Source: a virus (taxonomy: Duplodnaviria; Heunggongvirae; Uroviricota; Caudoviricetes). Taken from it: a stretch of DNA of 5,729 nt. The position numbers and the translations under genes were made by a program. A model generated the notes under the pieces. That model did no database searches. It saw only the letters and a program-made list of their open reading frames with translations, and was not told where the DNA came from. Location: IMG/VR virus record IMGVR_UViG_2695420658_000001; one strand, given 5' to 3'. Every line of letters starts with the position of its first letter. Within the stretch, counting starts at the first letter, position 1. Shown here piece by piece: positions 1-5,729 of the stretch.

Positions 1-137
1 TAACAGGTGTCTGGAAATATAGGGGCAAATCCAGCGTTCATCAGCCCCCGCATTGCCGACAGGATCACAGACGGGGGGCGCAACTGGTTGTCGTTCAACT
101 GGCCCAGCTACCGTTCTTGTATCAGAGGTGTGGCTGC

Positions 138-1529
138 ATGACAACACCAGTCTGGCGTAATGATGACCTGGAAGGCGCTGTCATTGGCGCATTCTTTCTG
201 CGTGGGGCAGATCATGAAGTGATGGATATTCTGATCACACTACCGGCGGACATTTTTTCTGTACGAGCGTATCGGGATATCTACACAGGCATCTGCAGAC
301 AGGCCCGTGTTTCAGGAGTGATTGACCCCGTGCTGTTGTGTAATGAGATGCCGGAACTTGCCCCGGTGATTACTGATACCGGGCGTAAAACCTGGGTGAA
401 GTCTTCACTGGAGCACTATGTTGCAGCGTTGCGGCGCAATGCCGCACTGCGCGATGCAGAAAAAACACTGAATGAGGCGCTGCAGAAATTACGTGATGCG
501 CATACCTGTGAAGCAGCTGAAGATGCCCTGAAGGATGCGCAGAACATGATGGTCACACTGTCGACAGGAAAGGGCGTCATTCAGCCGGTACATATTGATG
601 ATGTGCTTCCGGAAGTGGTTGAGCGTGTTGAATGCCGGAATCAGGGGCTGGAGAAATCCAGGACGTTGATGACCGGTATTGATGAACTGGACGCAAAAAC
701 AGGCGGTATGGAGCCCGGAGACCTGGTATTCATTGCCGCCCGTCCTTCGATGGGGAAAACCGAACTTGCGCTGGACATCATCGACAAGGTGACTGAGCAG
801 GGGCATGGTGTGCTTCTGTTCACCATGGAGATGGCGAACATCCAGATTGGTGAACGTATGGTGTCTGCGGCTGGAGGGATGCCAGTATCACGCCTGAAAT
901 CTGTGGCTCACTTTGAAGATGAAGACTGGGCGCGTTTCTCACAAGGGGTGGGGCGGATGACCGGGCGCAATATCTGGATGGTGGACCAGGCGAACCTGAC
1001 CATTGATGAGATATGCGCAACAACGAAACACCATCTGATTAAACATCCGGAAACGGCGCTGGTGGTGGTTGATTATCTCGGGCTGATAAAAACCCGAACC
1101 ACGGGGCGTCATGACCTTGCCGTGGGTGAAATCTCAAAGGGGCTTAAAGGCCTGGCAAAATCCGGTGGTTTTCCGTTGATTGCGCTGAGCCAGCTCTCCC
1201 GCGGTGTGGAGTCCAGACCCAATAAACGTCCCATGAACTCAGACCTGAAAAATTCCGGAGAAATAGAGGCGGATGCAGACATCATTCTGATGCTTTACAG
1301 GGATGAAGTGTACAACCCGGATACACAGGCTACAGGCATAGCAGAAATTAATATCACGAAACAACGTAACGGTTCTCTGGGGACGATTTACCGGCGTTTT
1401 TATAACGGACATTTTCTGCCTGTGGACCAGGAAAGCGCACAGGTTCTTTCCACCCCAATGCGGCAGCCCCAGCCGCGCAGATACAGCAATACACGTACCG
1501 ACAGCAGTAAGATGGAGCGTTTCTTTTGA
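138..1529 (+). CDS. DnaB-family replicative DNA helicase (lambdoid / P22 gene 12-like)
   Basis: 463-aa ORF. Walker A 'AARPSMGKT', Walker B-like 'LVVVDYLGLI', and the DnaB C-terminal block 'ALSQLSRGVESRPNKRPMNSDLKNSGEIEADADIILMLYRDEVYN' are all present. ATG at 138 follows GAGG at 125-128. The frame is open back to the window edge (track start is TTG 117), so the true start is uncertain. Confidence 0.9.
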   Translation: MTTPVWRNDDLEGAVIGAFFLRGADHEVMDILITLPADIFSVRAYRDIYTGICRQARVSGVIDPVLLCNEMPELAPVITDTGRKTWVKSSLEHYVAALRRNAALRDAEKTLNEALQKLRDAHTCEAAEDALKDAQNMMVTLSTGKGVIQPVHIDDVLPEVVERVECRNQGLEKSRTLMTGIDELDAKTGGMEPGDLVFIAARPSMGKTELALDIIDKVTEQGHGVLLFTMEMANIQIGERMVSAAGGMPVSRLKSVAHFEDEDWARFSQGVGRMTGRNIWMVDQANLTIDEICATTKHHLIKHPETALVVVDYLGLIKTRTTGRHDLAVGEISKGLKGLAKSGGFPLIALSQLSRGVESRPNKRPMNSDLKNSGEIEADADIILMLYRDEVYNPDTQATGIAEINITKQRNGSLGTIYRRFYNGHFLPVDQESAQVLSTPMRQPQPRRYSNTRTDSSKMERFF

Positions 1530-1783
1530 ACAACCAGACAATGACTTTTACCTCTGAACAATTGCGTAAACACGCGCAGGAAATGTTGCGACAGGCGGAA
1601 CAACTGGAAAAAACAGGTGTAACAAAAGATGCCATTCGTCGGGATATGGTGCCAGCGCTCAGGGAACTGATGCAGGCGAAACATCGCGCACAAAAAGCGG
1701 TGGATGAGCTCGTTGATTGTGTGGCAGAGCTGGAAACCAAAGTTGGAAAGTTTGAAAAAATGGTGCAGGAGGTGCTGCGCTGA
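1526..1783 (+). CDS. hypothetical small protein (about 80-85 aa, charged, helical or coiled-coil-like)
   Basis: ORF is tightly packed between the helicase and rusA. TTG 1526 overlaps the helicase stop (TGA 1527-1529) and has GGAG at 1514-1517; the alternative start is ATG 1541. Its stop TGA 1781-1783 overlaps the rusA ATG (TGATG). No family recognised. Confidence 0.5.
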   Translation: MNNQTMTFTSEQLRKHAQEMLRQAEQLEKTGVTKDAIRRDMVPALRELMQAKHRAQKAVDELVDCVAELETKVGKFEKMVQEVLR

Positions 1784-2296
1784 TGCGCCATGAGTTTATT
1801 TTACCTTATCCGCCGACGGTGAATACTTACTGGCGACGTCGTGGCAGCACATATTTTGTATCAAAAGTTGGTGAGCGTTATCGCCGTGATGTGACGCTAA
1901 TTGTTCGCCAGCAGCGGCTGAAATTAAACCTGTCCGGAAGGCTGGCGATAAAGATTATTGCAGAGCCACCGGATAAGCGCCGTCGTGACNNNNNNNNNNN
2001 NNNNNNNNNNNNNNNNNNNNNNNNNNNNNNNNNNNNNNNNNNNNNNNNNNNNNNNNNNNNNNNNNNNNNNNNNNNNNGGAAGACTGGCGATAAAGATTAT
2101 TGCAGAGCCACCGGATAAGCGCCGTCGTGACCTGGACAATATCCTGAAAGCACCACTGGATGCGCTGACGCATGCCGGACTACTCATAGACGACGAGCAG
2201 TTTGATGAAATCAATATTGTGCGCGGTCAGCTCGTTCCTGGTGGGCGACTGGGCGTGAAGATTTATGAAATCACAGGTGATAACGATGGCGCGTGA
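1783..2296 (+). CDS. rusA: RusA Holliday-junction resolvase, interrupted by an N-run and duplicated flank
   Basis: N-terminal part '[21 protein letters not shown]...[10 protein letters not shown]' and C-terminal part '[23 protein letters not shown]...[18 protein letters not shown]' match the RusA pattern, including the DxRRRDLDN catalytic block. AGGAGG lies at 1767-1772. As given, the two halves are in different frames; removing the 88 N plus one 54-nt duplicate copy (142 nt) restores a single 120-aa ORF. Confidence 0.85.
1936..1989. repeat. 54-nt left copy of the duplication flanking N-run 1
   Basis: ggaaggctggcgataaagattattgcagagccaccggataagcgccgtcgtgac matches 2078-2131 with one mismatch (g1941 vs a2083). 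Confidence 0.9.
1990..2077. other. N-run (88 nt), unresolved sequence or scaffold gap
   Basis: Run of n flanked by a near-identical 54-nt duplication inside rusA. Confidence 0.95.
2078..2131. repeat. 54-nt right copy of the duplication flanking N-run 1
   Basis: Matches 1936-1989 at 53 of 54 positions. Confidence 0.9.
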
Positions 2297-2965: not shown

Positions 2966-3026
2966 NNNNNNNNNNNNNNNNNNNNNNNNNNNNNNNNNNN
3001 NNNNNNNNNNNNNNNNNNNNNNNNNN
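2966..3026. other. N-run (61 nt), unresolved sequence or scaffold gap
   Basis: Run of n directly after repeat copy A. Confidence 0.95.
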
Positions 3027-3048
3027 ACTGCGCCAGCGGAGAACTACG

Positions 3049-3648
3049 ATGGCGCATATACAACTGATCAAACAAACCTCTTCCGGATTACTTCTCCCGG
3101 CGACGCCGGAGAGTTGCGATTTTCTGCATCAAATCAAAACAGGTGAGTGGATACACGCAGACTTTAAGCGTGTGCGTAACTACGCATTCCACAAGCGTTT
3201 TTTCAAACTCCTGCAACTGGGTTTCGATTACTGGACTCCGGTCGGTGGGGCGATCACGCCTCGCGAACGAAAACTGGTGTCCGGTTTCGTTGATTACCTG
3301 TGTGAATCAGTAGGCCGGGAACATACGCCAGCTCTGAGCGAAGCCGCAGAGCAATATCTGAATACAGTTGCGACACGCAGAACCCGGGATACGGCATTGC
3401 TAAAGTCGTTTGAGGCTTTTCGCGAGTGGGTAACCATTCAGGCTGGATTTTACACCGAACATTTTTATCCGGACGGTAGCCGCGGGCGTCGGGCAAAATC
3501 CATCGCTTTTGCGAATATGGACGAAACCGAGTTTCAGCAGGTTTATAAATCTGTTCTGAATGTGCTGTGGAACTGGATTCTGTTCCGTAAATTTTCCTCT
3601 CCGGAACAAGTCGAAAATGTGGCCGCGCAGCTGCTGGAGTTTGCGTAA
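3049..3648 (+). CDS. hypothetical lambdoid nin-region protein (resembles the DUF1367 family)
   Basis: 199-aa ORF with GGAG at 3038-3041 seven nt upstream of ATG 3049. Its stop TAA 3646-3648 overlaps the next gene's ATG (TAATG). The frame is open into the N-run, so the start could lie further upstream. Family assignment is from memory only. Confidence 0.65.
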   Translation: MAHIQLIKQTSSGLLLPATPESCDFLHQIKTGEWIHADFKRVRNYAFHKRFFKLLQLGFDYWTPVGGAITPRERKLVSGFVDYLCESVGREHTPALSEAAEQYLNTVATRRTRDTALLKSFEAFREWVTIQAGFYTEHFYPDGSRGRRAKSIAFANMDETEFQQVYKSVLNVLWNWILFRKFSSPEQVENVAAQLLEFA

Positions 3649-3938
3649 TGGTGGATTTACGTAAAGCGGCGCGGGGGCAGATGTGCACCGTCAGAATTCC
3701 TGGCTACTGCAATCACGATCCGGAAACGTCTGTGCTGGCGCATTACCGACTGGCGGGAACGTGCGGAACAGCGATAAAGCCACACGATATGCAGGCAGCG
3801 ATTGCCTGTAGCTCGTGCCACGATTTAATCGACGGGCGGGTAAAAACCAGCGATTACACCAAAGAAGAATTACGCCTGATGCATGCAGAAGGTGTTTTTC
3901 GCACACAAGAAATCTGGAGAAAGGAGGGATATTTATGA
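3648..3938 (+). CDS. ybcO: YbcO-like protein (DUF1364, putative nuclease of lambdoid nin regions)
   Basis: 96-aa ORF 'MVDLRKAARGQMCTVRIPGYCNHDPETSVLAHYRLAGTCGTAIKPHD...IACSSCHDLIDGR' matches the E. coli DLP12 YbcO pattern (MADLRKAARG...VRIPG.CN..PETSVLAH.RL.G.CG...KP.D...IACS.CHD.ID.R). Translationally coupled on both sides. Confidence 0.8.
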   Translation: MVDLRKAARGQMCTVRIPGYCNHDPETSVLAHYRLAGTCGTAIKPHDMQAAIACSSCHDLIDGRVKTSDYTKEELRLMHAEGVFRTQEIWRKEGYL

Positions 3939-4489
3939 TTTACCCAACGAATACAGGAAAAAGCGGAGAACACCTTCGTCTCACCACGCTGGAAAGTGTC
4001 TGGATTCAGGGAAAACTACGTATGTGGGGGCGCTGGTCGTATATTGGTGGCGGTAAGACGGGGAATATGTTTAACCTGATGTTGACCTCTAAAAAGCTGA
4101 CAAAAACGGCAATTAACGAGGCGCTCCGGAGGATGAAAAAAGCAGGTCTGAACAAGTCTGAACTTGAGGCTTTTTTGCGGGATATGATTAACGGTAAGCA
4201 AAAGAGCTGGCTGGCGCATTGTACTGATGCAGAGGCGTTATGTATTGATCGGGTCATAAGTGAGGTGCTGGCAGAGCATCCAGGATTGATTAGCGTCCTT
4301 CGGCAACGGTATGAGGGGCGGGGGATGACCAAACGCAAAATGGCTGAACTGCTGAATGATGCACACCCGAAATGGAGTTTAAGAACCTGTGAAAGACGCA
4401 TTGAGCATTGGCTAAAGGTGGCAGAATTTATTTTGTACAAACCAATGGTTATGGCTTTTGGTATAGAGAAAAAAGTTATTGCTTTTTGA
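3935..4489 (+). CDS. putative late-gene regulator, candidate second Q-like antiterminator (184 aa); function uncertain
   Basis: Strong RBS AAGGAGGG at 3921-3928 and ATGA overlap with the ybcO-like stop. N-terminal 'LRMWGRWSYIGGG' echoes the 'ERWGAWAAN' motif of the QuuD-like protein. C-terminal 'VLRQRYEGRGMTKRKMAELLNDAHPKWSLRTCERRIEHWLK' resembles a sigma region-4 / HTH segment. It is followed by the same 196-bp promoter cassette as quuD. Confidence 0.55.
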   Translation: MIYPTNTGKSGEHLRLTTLESVWIQGKLRMWGRWSYIGGGKTGNMFNLMLTSKKLTKTAINEALRRMKKAGLNKSELEAFLRDMINGKQKSWLAHCTDAEALCIDRVISEVLAEHPGLISVLRQRYEGRGMTKRKMAELLNDAHPKWSLRTCERRIEHWLKVAEFILYKPMVMAFGIEKKVIAF

Positions 4490-4534
4490 CGTAAAAACTG
4501 CTTCAATTCTTGTACGCTTCGCAAAGCTGTACCN

Positions 4535-4730
4535 ACGCCGCGAGCGTGTTTTTTATTGTCGTATGCACGCGCACATCTGAATTATGGTGGGGCGCATGGG
4601 GGAGCTGAAAAGCTCGCCGGTCGGTTTCCCGGTAGTTCCAACCCTGTGCGTCTCACCACCCGATGATTGGAACCTGACGGTGTTGACAGTTTCAGGTTTG
4701 CAGTTTACATTTCCCCGCGGTGCTCAAAAC
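4535..4730. repeat. 196-bp direct repeat, copy B (identical to 2770-2965)
   Basis: Perfect identity. A single ambiguous base n at 4534 sits immediately upstream, inside what would be the terminator stem. Confidence 0.95.
4683..4711 (+). promoter_or_regulatory. sigma70-type promoter TTGACA, 17-nt spacer, TACATT (inside repeat copy B); candidate late promoter
   Basis: -35 TTGACA at 4683-4688 and -10 TACATT at 4706-4711. A terminator-like hairpin with T7 tail begins about 30 nt downstream of the predicted start site. Confidence 0.45.
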
Positions 4731-4746
4731 ACCTCGAAAGCGGTAT

Positions 4747-4776
4747 CCACACCCGATAGCCATGTGGTTTTTTTGT
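4747..4776 (+). terminator. candidate rho-independent terminator (weak stem, strong T-tract)
   Basis: CCACA (4747-4751) pairs with TGTGG (4763-4767) across an 11-nt loop, followed by seven T (4768-4774). The stem is short, so confidence is moderate to low. Confidence 0.4.
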
Positions 4777-4917
4777 GTCCAGAATTCTTGGTTTATGACC
4801 GGGTGTGCGGCTAATACAATACCAGCAATGGAAATACGCCCGCCGACTTTCGACGGTTTTGAGCGCCCGGTCACCCTCTCAAAAGGGGTAAATCAAAATA
4901 TTCGAAAGGACATGTCT

Positions 4918-5481
4918 ATGAATCGCACGTCTATTGAAAAACTCCCGTCACTTACGCATAACCATCTTCCTGTCATGACAACAGAGCTGCTGGCTGATTT
5001 GTACGGAACAGAGCGCCAGCGTTTGACAAACAATTTCAATCGAAACAAAGAACGGTTTATAGAAGGTAAACATTTTTTCCTGATAGAAGGTGATGCGTTA
5101 CGAGAGTTGAAGAACGAAAACTCTTTAAGAGTTTCTGTGAAAATTGCCCGTAACGTTCGCTCCCTCATCCTCTGGACAGAACGTGGCGCAGCCCGTCACG
5201 CCAAAATGCTCGAAACCGATCAGGCGTGGGAAGTGTTCGAAAAACTGGAAGACTGTTATTTCAACCAGAAACAGCCACCAGCGGCACAAAACACATCTAT
5301 CGAAAATGATGGATGCGCATTACTGAGCCACTTCGATAAACACGGTCAGGTTGAGTTCACGGAAAAGGTACCCGCCGATGCGATGGTATGTACTCTGGAA
5401 CGGTTTAAATTTTATCTGGAGCAACACGGGTGGATCGTTGCCCGTAAAGAGCAACTGGTGGAGCGGTTGATGCGGTTTTAA
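4918..5481 (+). CDS. ORF6N-domain (KilA-N / Bro-N-like DNA-binding fold) protein, antirepressor-like; C-terminal about 75 aa unassigned
   Basis: 187-aa ORF. 'PVMTTELLADLYGTERQRLTNNFNRNKERFIEGKHFFLIEGDALRELK...LWTERGAARHAKMLETDQAWEV' fits the ORF6N pattern (VM..DLA.LYG.E...L...RN.ERFPEDF.F.L...E...LK...WTE.G.A...L..D.A). AAGGA at 4906-4910 precedes ATG 4918; ATG 4912 is the alternative start. Confidence 0.75.
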   Translation: MNRTSIEKLPSLTHNHLPVMTTELLADLYGTERQRLTNNFNRNKERFIEGKHFFLIEGDALRELKNENSLRVSVKIARNVRSLILWTERGAARHAKMLETDQAWEVFEKLEDCYFNQKQPPAAQNTSIENDGCALLSHFDKHGQVEFTEKVPADAMVCTLERFKFYLEQHGWIVARKEQLVERLMRF

Positions 5482-5512
5482 AAATTTTTTCCGAAAACTT
5501 TACGATCGTAAA

Positions 5513-5549
5513 NNNNNNNNNNNNNNNNNNNNNNNNNNNNNNNNNNNNN
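5513..5549. other. N-run (37 nt), unresolved sequence or scaffold gap
   Basis: Run of n. The 24 nt directly after it (5550-5573) exactly repeat 5357-5380 from inside the ORF6N gene. Confidence 0.95.
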
Positions 5550-5562
5550 TCACGGAAAAGGT

Positions 5563-5588
5563 ACCCGCCGATGAGCGGGTTTTTTTAT
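5563..5588 (+). terminator. rho-independent terminator
   Basis: Stem ACCCGC (5563-5568), loop cgatga, stem GCGGGT (5575-5580), then TTTTTTAT. Confidence 0.6.
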
Positions 5589-5636
5589 ACCTGAAAAACG
5601 GCACAGGACGTTAAACGTGCTGGTGGTCAGATGAGT

Positions 5637-5665
5637 TTGCAGATGTGATGACATATGGTTATTAT
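5637..5665 (+). promoter_or_regulatory. candidate promoter for the tRNA gene (TTGCAG, 17-nt spacer, TATTAT)
   Basis: -35 TTGCAG at 5637-5642 and -10 TATTAT at 5660-5665, placing the start site a few nt before the tRNA 5' end at 5675. Confidence 0.35.
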
Positions 5666-5674
5666 TCTGCCTCC

Positions 5675-5729
5675 GGCCCTTTAGCTCAGTTGGTCAGAGC
5701 GAGCGACTCATAATCGCCAGGTCGCTGGT
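5675..5729 (+). tRNA. ileZ: tRNA-Ile (anticodon CAU, lysidine-type, ileX/ileZ-like), 5' portion; truncated by window end
   Basis: GGCCCTTTAGCTCAGTTGGTCAGAGCGAGCGACTCATAATCGCCAGGTCGCTGGT closely parallels E. coli ileX as I recall it. D-arm AGCTCAGTTGGTCAGAGC; anticodon loop CTCATAA with CAT at 5709-5711. Met versus Ile2 cannot be fully settled from the anticodon alone. Confidence 0.8.

Follow-up and report, generated by a model that had tools for sequence, protein, structure and literature searches.

The window analysed here is a 5,729-nucleotide (nt) stretch of DNA from the IMG/VR virus record IMGVR_UViG_2695420658_000001, and the gene under study, at positions 4918–5481, encodes a protein of 187 amino acids (aa) with an ORF6N domain. 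I propose, with a probability of roughly 0.65, that this is an AnrP-type antirepressor-family protein, and that its gene sits in a portable, self-promoted and RNA-controlled cassette, directly behind the antiterminator gene Q of a decayed lambdoid prophage of Shigella sonnei. A small structured RNA encoded before the gene, of the sRNA-Xcc1 family, probably blocks its ribosome-binding site. Coordinates are those of the window unless stated otherwise, and all stranded features lie on its plus strand.

The open reading frame (ORF) spans 4720–5481, and the ATG at 4918 is taken as its start, backed by a Shine-Dalgarno sequence (AAGGA, 4906–4910) and by relatives that have this ATG only. Pfam places an ORF6N domain (PF10543) at residues 13–97, with an E-value of 8.8e-21 and 74 bits against a cut-off of 27.8, which confirms the ORF6N gene read here in a preliminary description of the same DNA. 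For residues ∼98–187 Pfam gave no match, and NCBIfam had none for the protein; that region is covered by PHROG 2379, annotated as "anti-repressor", which aligns residues 2–187 with profile positions 3–187 of 187 (E-value 4.4e-85). Comparison by BLASTP with AnrP (STM2616) of the Salmonella Typhimurium prophage Gifsy-1, likewise of 187 aa and likewise carrying ORF6N (E-value 4.4e-20), gave 49% identity over 184 aa (E-value 6e-58), and a tblastn search of phage genomes matched STM2616 over 97% of the query. According to Hershko-Shalev et al. (2016; PMC4825925), AnrP, when expressed, raises the RNA of the antQ operon, and its induction of Gifsy-1 does not depend on isrK. Judged by this homology, the protein belongs, as a new member, to the known family of AnrP-type antirepressors (PHROG 2379), and the earlier suggestion of an antirepressor-like regulator fits it. 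That description had also named, as the case that would speak against it, a widespread core antirepressor with a known partner at the immunity region; the family is indeed widespread and annotated as antirepressor, and a partner repressor was not identified.

An AlphaFold model of the protein (pLDDT 72.5) has a confident N-terminal domain, a disordered linker at residues ∼115–130, and a small C-terminal domain (∼131–187) built from two helices and one beta-hairpin. No PDB sequence was matched in a profile search. The C-terminal region is shared with a 185-aa protein (L111, positions 1–558; also found in L112–L116) whose last 70 aa are 90% identical to residues 118–187, and which is a Phage_pRha N-domain fused to the shared C-domain; the small domain is therefore shuffled between Rha-type and ORF6N-type regulators. 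Used as the sole query, the C-terminal 68 aa retrieved 17 mostly fragmentary proteins, Rha N-domain fusions among them, and no function. In the gene located behind the Xcc1 RNA of a phage carrying Shiga toxin 2c (Stx2c), the ORF6N N-domain precedes the P22 antirepressor C-terminal domain (P22_AR_C).

The window itself is a chimeric draft scaffold from a S. sonnei prophage remnant. The encoded protein is 100% identical across thousands of S. sonnei assemblies, and the window was aligned to complete S. sonnei genomes, with CP032523.1 (locus L027) as reference. Window positions 1–1989, 2078–2965, 4535–5512 and 5563–5729 correspond to L027 6991–8979, 8926–9813, 9618–10595 and 10642–10808, respectively. 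The N-runs at 1990–2077, 2966–3026, 4534 and 5513–5549 are scaffold joins, the first three of them with duplicated ends of 54 and 196 nt: a 54-nt duplicate (1936–1989 = 2078–2131) flanks the first N-run and splits the RusA gene, while a 196-nt exact repeat (2770–2965 = 4535–4730) corresponds to one single place in L027. Between the two written copies of this 196-nt stretch, the second and third joins enclose a foreign contig, so that 2966–4534 (two N characters plus the DNA at 3027–4533, with DUF1367, YbcO and DUF1133 genes) is a scaffold artefact and no part of the locus. The DNA at 3027–4533 is not found at the ORF6N locus in complete S. sonnei genomes; its counterpart, at 99.6% identity, is part of another prophage remnant that lies ∼1 Mb away in CP104423.1. 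This distant position is also why I rejected a reading with two genuine C4 RNA copies in tandem on either side of DUF1367-DUF1133. At the last join, the 13 nt at 5550–5562 derive from the interior of the ORF, copied when the assembly was mis-extended at an 11-nt repeat of natural origin, ACCCGCCGATG, which seeded the apparent 24-nt repeat 5357–5380/5550–5573; a reading of the latter as a recombination junction was likewise rejected, as complete genomes have a different 46-nt sequence there.

Because the DNA at 3027–4533 is foreign to the locus, the true upstream neighbour of the ORF6N gene is the Q antiterminator gene at 2265–2672 (PF06530, E-value 2.7e-52), not the DUF1133 gene. The real order is DnaB, an 85-aa ORF, RusA, Q, a 480-nt non-coding stretch, the ORF6N gene, a terminator and tRNAs for Ile2(CAU), Arg, Thr and Gly, then ∼680 nt, holin, lysozyme, Rz, HNH, terminase, and a portal gene cut by IS4. 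On L027, Q lies at 9134–9520 with isrK, C4, Xcc1 and ORF6N directly 3′ of it, the gene at 10001–10564, the tRNAs at 10754–11064 and the holin gene at 11745. The placement of the gene between Q and the tRNA block thus holds in complete genomes. The S. sonnei element is an insertion sequence (IS)-bounded remnant, with no immunity region in view.

The control region before the gene is best described against the immI locus of phages P1 and P7 (c4, icd, ant). There, an antisense RNA, C4, is made from the transcript of its own target, and its a′ and b′ segments pair with upstream a1/b1 and downstream a2/b2 sites; b2 covers the ribosome-binding site, the loop sequence sets specificity, and the controlled gene is an antirepressor. 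For C4 of P1, processing of a tRNA-like substrate by RNase P has been reported. In the S. sonnei remnant two such control units appear in tandem, and the one adjacent to the gene is built around an sRNA-Xcc1-family RNA at 4797–4880 (Rfam RF02221, 77.4 bits against a gathering score of 53, model positions 1–87). All Rfam matches for isrK, c4-a1b1, C4 and sRNA-Xcc1 exceed their gathering score.

This second unit starts with a predicted promoter, P2 (4683–4711, TTGACA-17-TACATT, 10/12 in the promoter scan). It is followed by a hairpin (4719–4733) with the a1 sequence CUCAAAA in its loop (4723–4729), complementary to Xcc1 a′, by the b1 site UCGAAAG (4734–4740), complementary to Xcc1 b′, and by a leader terminator (4747–4774, stem CCACA/UGUGG, T-run 4768–4774) whose hairpin and T-run are kept in relatives; the terminator scan missed it because its loop is too long. 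P2 and this terminator together would yield a decoy RNA of ∼55–60 nt. Within the Xcc1 RNA, the b′ loop CUUUCGA (4847–4853) and the a′ linker UUUUGAG (4857–4863) match not only the leader, but also two putative translation-initiation targets downstream, a2 (CUCAAAA, 4878–4884) and b2 (UCGAAAG, 4902–4908), the latter overlapping the Shine-Dalgarno sequence. The b site covaries three ways: the three enterobacterial specificities UCGAAAG, UCAGUAG and CAAGUAG shift in concert at b1, b′ and b2, the present locus having the first, EC12 and Escherichia coli RM8082 the second (with CUACUGA), and O157 and phiON-2011 the third (with CUACUUG). The predicted duplex between Xcc1 4840–4870 and leader 4716–4746 has an energy of −38.7 kcal/mol, which none of 300 shuffles reached, and that with the initiation region −21.5 kcal/mol, reached by 3 of 300. 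In the minimum free energy fold of the whole leader, a1/b1 pair with a′/b′ in cis. The short leader folded alone is not stabler than shuffles (z +0.67), its support being conservation and not energy.

To place this arrangement in a wider context, I gathered 120 viral-contig loci with the conserved Xcc1 core pattern, giving 74 distinct hairpin-2 sequences. An exact complement of at least 6 nt both upstream and downstream was found in 73% of cognate sets versus 3.1% of non-cognate ones, and one of at least 7 nt in 39% versus 0.4%. The loops comprise at least 47 distinct words, and in most listed relatives among the 54 loci with a three-way match of at least 6 nt, b2 abuts or overlaps the Shine-Dalgarno sequence. 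The order of the elements is also conserved, a1 preceding b1 in 33 of 36 scorable loci and a2 preceding b2 in 35 of 36, with a T-run behind b1 in 32 of the 36 at a median distance of 34 nt. At 100 Xcc1 loci, promoter-like sites are concentrated where their −10 end falls 51–70 nt upstream of the leader T-run (60 of 101 in two 10-nt bins). Both C4 and Xcc1 have the architecture of an outer stem enclosing two hairpins, with an RCC tail at the 3′ end; a CC within one base of the outer stem is present in roughly 98 of 108 Xcc1 members (summed from tail counts), and the stem plus CC resembles, by analogy, a tRNA-like RNase P substrate. Viral contigs L219, L203 and L170 each have a tandem pair of Xcc1 units, which differ in loop sequence and have a leader apiece, and a Xylella genome has five Xcc1 in a row (PMC12189769).

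The first unit, which directly follows Q, is of the type found in Gifsy-1 and P1. Its promoter PisrK (2677–2706, TTGACC-18-TATATT), read from the sequence, is located 5 nt past the Q stop codon and so occupies the expected late-promoter position; the pattern TTGAC-N17/18-cggggcTATATT is conserved before isrK in the Gifsy-1, nin-region, early-left and prophage-end copies. Downstream are an IsrK-type small RNA with its own terminator (2713–2789, RF01394, 77.5 bits against a gathering score of 50), overlapped by a c4-a1b1 target motif (2700–2752, RF03163, 50.1 bits), and a C4 antisense RNA (RF01695, 71 bits), equivalent to STnc1160/orf45′ of Gifsy-1, which is written twice in the window, first at 2815–2898 and again, as the same DNA contiguous with the gene, at 4580–4663. 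The b2-type C4 target UUGGAAC (4667–4673) has no ribosome-binding site or gene behind it in this lineage; its equivalent in Gifsy-1 and in the Stx2c phage of O157 lies before the ribosome-binding site of the first ORF6N gene. Both the IsrK loop UUGGAAC and the downstream site change in step with the C4 b′ sequence GUUCCAA, the compensatory pairs being UUGGAAC/GUUCCAA here, UUGGCGU/ACGCCAA in Gifsy-1 and UUGCUAC/GUAGCAA in phiON-2011. In E. coli RM8082 (L001, 5932–6130), IsrK and C4 are of the UUGGCGU/ACGCCAA specificity but the site after C4 is UUGGAAC, which suggests a recombination junction at the C4 3′ end that left a mismatched b2.

An orf45-like ORF (4584–4814, also written from 2819) begins within C4 and has, like its Gifsy-1 counterpart, two AUGs spaced 12 nt apart. 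It runs to 76 codons here and 27–45 in relatives, and this extension is probably fortuitous. Translational coupling of the orf45 type was considered and rejected, as the stop lies 104 nt before the ATG at 4918 and the length is unconserved in relatives (27, 33, 44 and 76 aa).

The cassette is portable. The whole of it, or units of it, can follow Q, as in EC12, sit at the end of a prophage, as in RM8082, or stand alone, as in Symbiopectobacterium. In the O157 Stx2c phages and Nil2, isrK-C4-antA and then Xcc1-antB lie between ninE and ninG, and in the early-left region of phiON-2011 isrK-C4-Rha is followed by Xcc1-antB1; from these sequences, the S. sonnei arrangement looks like the two-gene form minus its first gene. 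Because the gene moves together with its promoter, leader and RNA, it has no general need of Q. With PisrK at the late-promoter position, Q may still boost readthrough at this locus. I sought the cognate late promoter PR′ of this Q family in O157 prophages with an 83%-identical Q and no cassette, and found the post-Q sequence to be unrelated. An exact 46-nt search of the genome contig collection gave no match, and a protein-seeded scan returned distant ORF6N loci only.

The other remnant of S. sonnei (L238, 3093–4799) has a Q-like DUF1133 gene followed directly by a terminator and the tRNA block, the first 155 nt of which are identical to window 5575–5729. On comparison of both loci, the isrK-to-ORF6N cassette is an insertion relative to this plain Q-terminator-tRNA layout. 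In E. coli O157:H7 strain 611 (L237, 2520–5300) the 83%-identical Q gene has no cassette behind it, but a CPBP-family protease gene, a TrmB-like pseudogene and a helix-turn-helix gene before tRNA-Ile/Arg, showing variable cargo in the Q-to-tRNA interval.

The closest known system is the isrK-orf45-anrP region of Gifsy-1, which shares with the S. sonnei locus, in identical order, Q, PisrK, IsrK, a C4-type RNA (STnc1160), a 187-aa ORF6N protein, a tRNA and the lysis genes. The −10 region of the promoter is closely related in both, as are the sequences of IsrK and C4, whose loops show compensatory changes. In Gifsy-1, PisrK drives transcription of isrK-orf45-anrP, and IsrK supplied in trans activates anrP translation ∼140-fold (PMC4825925). 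The two loci differ in several respects. Q is of the phage-82 type in Gifsy-1, and of the PF06530 family here; the ATGA overlap of orf45 and anrP is gone here, and no isrJ follows the gene; the host element here is a remnant without immunity region. Above all, ∼200 nt (roughly 4676–4880, with P2, leader, terminator and Xcc1) lie here between C4/b2 and the initiation region, and Rfam finds isrK and C4 in the same places in Gifsy-1 but no Xcc1. The P1/P7 immI locus (Citron and Schuster, 1990, as cited in PMC7313666) is similar in its logic, the Xcc1 target pairs (b1 4734–4740 and b2 4902–4908, plus a1/a2) lying on both sides of the RNA with the downstream pair over the ribosome-binding site. Unlike immI, the RNA adjacent to the gene belongs to the sRNA-Xcc1 family and not to the C4 family, and there is no icd-like coupled ORF. 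The protein has no established homology with P1 Ant, with which no comparison was run.

A further relative is the antA/antB region of Stx phages (Nil2, the O157 Stx2c prophage and phiON-2011), where the DNA of the Xcc1 leader and ORF6N N-domain is 77–80% identical, residues 1–124 are 67% identical, and the promoter-leader-Xcc1 layout is the same. In contrast, the C-terminal domains there are others (P22_AR_C, for example), and the genes are preceded not by Q but by a first gene, antA or Rha, within nin or early-left regions. Work on Xanthomonas campestris by Chen and colleagues in 2011 is said to have described sRNA-Xcc1 as trans-acting, integron-borne and under HrpG/HrpX control. The RNA here is a full-length match to that family, but differs in being a leader element whose loops match the Shine-Dalgarno sequence of the neighbouring gene. 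Other literature likewise treats Xcc1 as a trans-acting small RNA (PMC12189769 among it), and a paper on APSE phages places it upstream of an ORF6N protein, without a mechanism (PMC7313666). A literature search, incomplete in coverage, found no cis target or C4-like gate described for Xcc1.

From these comparisons I infer the following mechanism. The first unit (PisrK, IsrK with a1/b1, C4 and b2) would follow the Gifsy-1/P1 scheme, its own gene having been lost in this lineage. The second would apply the same logic with different RNAs: most transcripts from P2, carrying a1 and b1, would stop at the leader terminator and yield the short decoy RNA, while those that read through would contain Xcc1 and then the gene. 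Xcc1 would probably be excised from the transcript by RNase P, like C4, and its a′ and b′ would pair with a2 and b2 across the Shine-Dalgarno sequence, so keeping translation off; titration of Xcc1 by the leader RNA, whose complementarity to it is nearly complete, would switch translation on. Polymerase modified by Q and starting at PisrK could read through both terminators and lift the mRNA level, without Q being required. The protein would then inactivate a CI-type repressor and set off induction of a prophage, on the model of AnrP and Gifsy-1. What is of interest here is the proposed Xcc1 gate, a new variation on the C4 principle; the protein itself is ordinary.

Several points weigh against this reading. 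Its support, for this exact protein and RNA, comes from sequence comparison and prediction, and antirepressor activity is known only genetically, for a homologue of 49% identity whose repressor target was never demonstrated. Foldseek found nothing in the PDB better than an E-value of 0.66, and structure searches yielded no informative match for the C-domain. The remnant is bounded by IS elements and has no immunity region nearby, so the cognate repressor may be absent. IsrK of Gifsy-1 acts via orf45 coupling, which is unconserved here, and the Gifsy-1 mechanism is therefore not transferable as it stands. In about one Xcc1 locus out of four there is no exact three-way match of at least 6 nt, and the sign of Xcc1 control, taken here as repression, would follow from Shine-Dalgarno occlusion and from analogy to P1 C4.

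The preliminary description had interpreted the gene as promoterless cargo of the late leader, with 4683–4711 as the late promoter PR′, 4747–4776 as its terminator tR′, and expression only through Q readthrough, as in the moron slot of Stx phages. Both elements exist, and the gene does sit between Q and the tRNA and lysis genes, with at least two intrinsic terminators upstream. PisrK is where PR′ is expected, and since Gifsy-1 transcripts pass the IsrK terminator only in part (PMC4825925), Q could raise expression. However, the first promoter past Q is PisrK, not 4683–4711, and a plasmid fusion has PisrK driving anrP; the promoter at 4683–4711 and the terminator at 4747–4774 are conserved, at fixed spacing, as parts of the Xcc1 units of ∼100 phage loci. 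Such cassettes also occur far from any Q gene (nin regions, one early-left region, one prophage end), and the two elements are therefore not PR′ and tR′. Nor does the gene seem to lack promoters of its own, as two predicted sigma-70 promoters, PisrK and P2, precede it, so that the position of the Q-gated slot is shared here but not its promoterless character. The same description had named a constitutive promoter without Q dependence as contrary to its view; the two predicted promoters go part of the way towards this. I consider the late-leader interpretation unlikely.

Two further alternatives concern the protein. It could be a sequence-specific DNA-binding transcription factor that acts directly on promoters and not by inactivating a repressor, which I regard as improbable, if a little less so than the late-leader cargo. 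Pfam describes the KilA-N-type class, which includes ORF6N, as DNA-binding, and the AnrP paper shows raised antQ-operon RNA and induction only, not repressor binding; the PHROG 2379 annotation and the P22_AR_C fusion nevertheless point to antirepressors, and C4-type RNA control is classical for the ant genes of P1 and P7. Least probable of all is a KilA-type toxic, defence or anti-defence effector silenced by antisense RNA much as in type I toxin-antitoxin pairs, an idea related to the defence or anti-defence moron proposed earlier. In its favour are weak PADLOC matches to PDC-S05 candidate models, of at most 29 bits over residues 19–115 and through the ORF6N region alone. Toxic products are typically under tight translational silencing, and Xcc1 RNAs also stand before toxin genes, namely symE in integron cassettes of Xanthomonas (bioRxiv 10.1101/2025.06.18.660453). 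Yet PADLOC gave no full-length match to a defence model; the closest characterised homologue is toxic only indirectly, via AntQ and induction, and the neighbours are ordinary lambdoid genes. An AnrP-type antirepressor under Xcc1 control remains the reading I prefer.

Past the gene, an intrinsic terminator at 5563–5587 (6 pairs, 5 of them GC, plus T-run) is identical in L027. A sub-threshold Rfam match to Trp_leader (24.9 bits, gathering score 41; L027 10594–10667, window ∼5511–5588) lies over it and is probably just its hairpin plus T-run, and no isrJ homologue was found at L027 10594–10667. A promoter-like site before the tRNA block (5636–5665, TTTGCA-18-TATTAT, 9/12) is a weak call; it recurs with the same sequence in the other remnant, before the identical tRNA block that follows DUF1133. 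The tRNA-Ile(CAU) announced downstream of the gene is present, starting at 5675: its 5′ part (5675–5729, 34.6 bits in Rfam) is cut by the window end, and ARAGORN reports no tRNA in the window. In L027 it is complete, with anticodon CAU, and matches at 74 of 77 positions a tRNA-Ile that RefSeq annotates in an O157 Stx phage. Four tRNAs make up the block that it opens: Ile2(CAU), Arg(UCU), Thr(UGU) and Gly(UCC). The genes beyond are thus three more tRNAs, and then, after the ∼680 nt of L027 11065–11744, which contain no called gene and several hairpin/T-run sites, the lysis genes. The equivalent space in Gifsy-1 holds isrJ, tRNA-Arg, isrI and gogA.

These observations have consequences for how such loci are read. 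Repeats shared between prophages create, as in this window, chimeric scaffolds that alter the apparent gene neighbourhood. In prophages of Shigella, E. coli and Salmonella, a gene behind Q that is annotated "ORF6N domain-containing protein" can be read as one for an AnrP-type antirepressor, and the promoter and terminator before it should not be mistaken for PR′ and tR′. For sRNA-Xcc1, a family without a known target, the three-way covariation suggests a concrete job, which would be that of a C4-like translational gate with a decoy RNA.

More broadly, and with a confidence just short of even, the sRNA-Xcc1 RNAs may form a second class, likewise widespread, of antisense RNAs with a C4-like "immunity" role. 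Each would come from the leader of its own target gene and have a hypervariable 6–8-nt loop that matches both a decoy site, on a short RNA encoded upstream, and the neighbouring Shine-Dalgarno sequence; S. sonnei would then have two such gates stacked behind Q. The controlled neighbours may be antirepressor genes (of ORF6N, Rha, BRO or Ant type) or a toxin gene (symE). The loops appear programmable, which suggests many mutually orthogonal immunity specificities. As S. sonnei and Shiga toxin-producing E. coli carry several lambdoid prophages, a trans-acting antirepressor borne by a remnant could influence the induction of Stx phages. If this is true, an orphan antirepressor in a dead prophage could still fire, cross-inducing other lambdoid prophages, Stx phages included.

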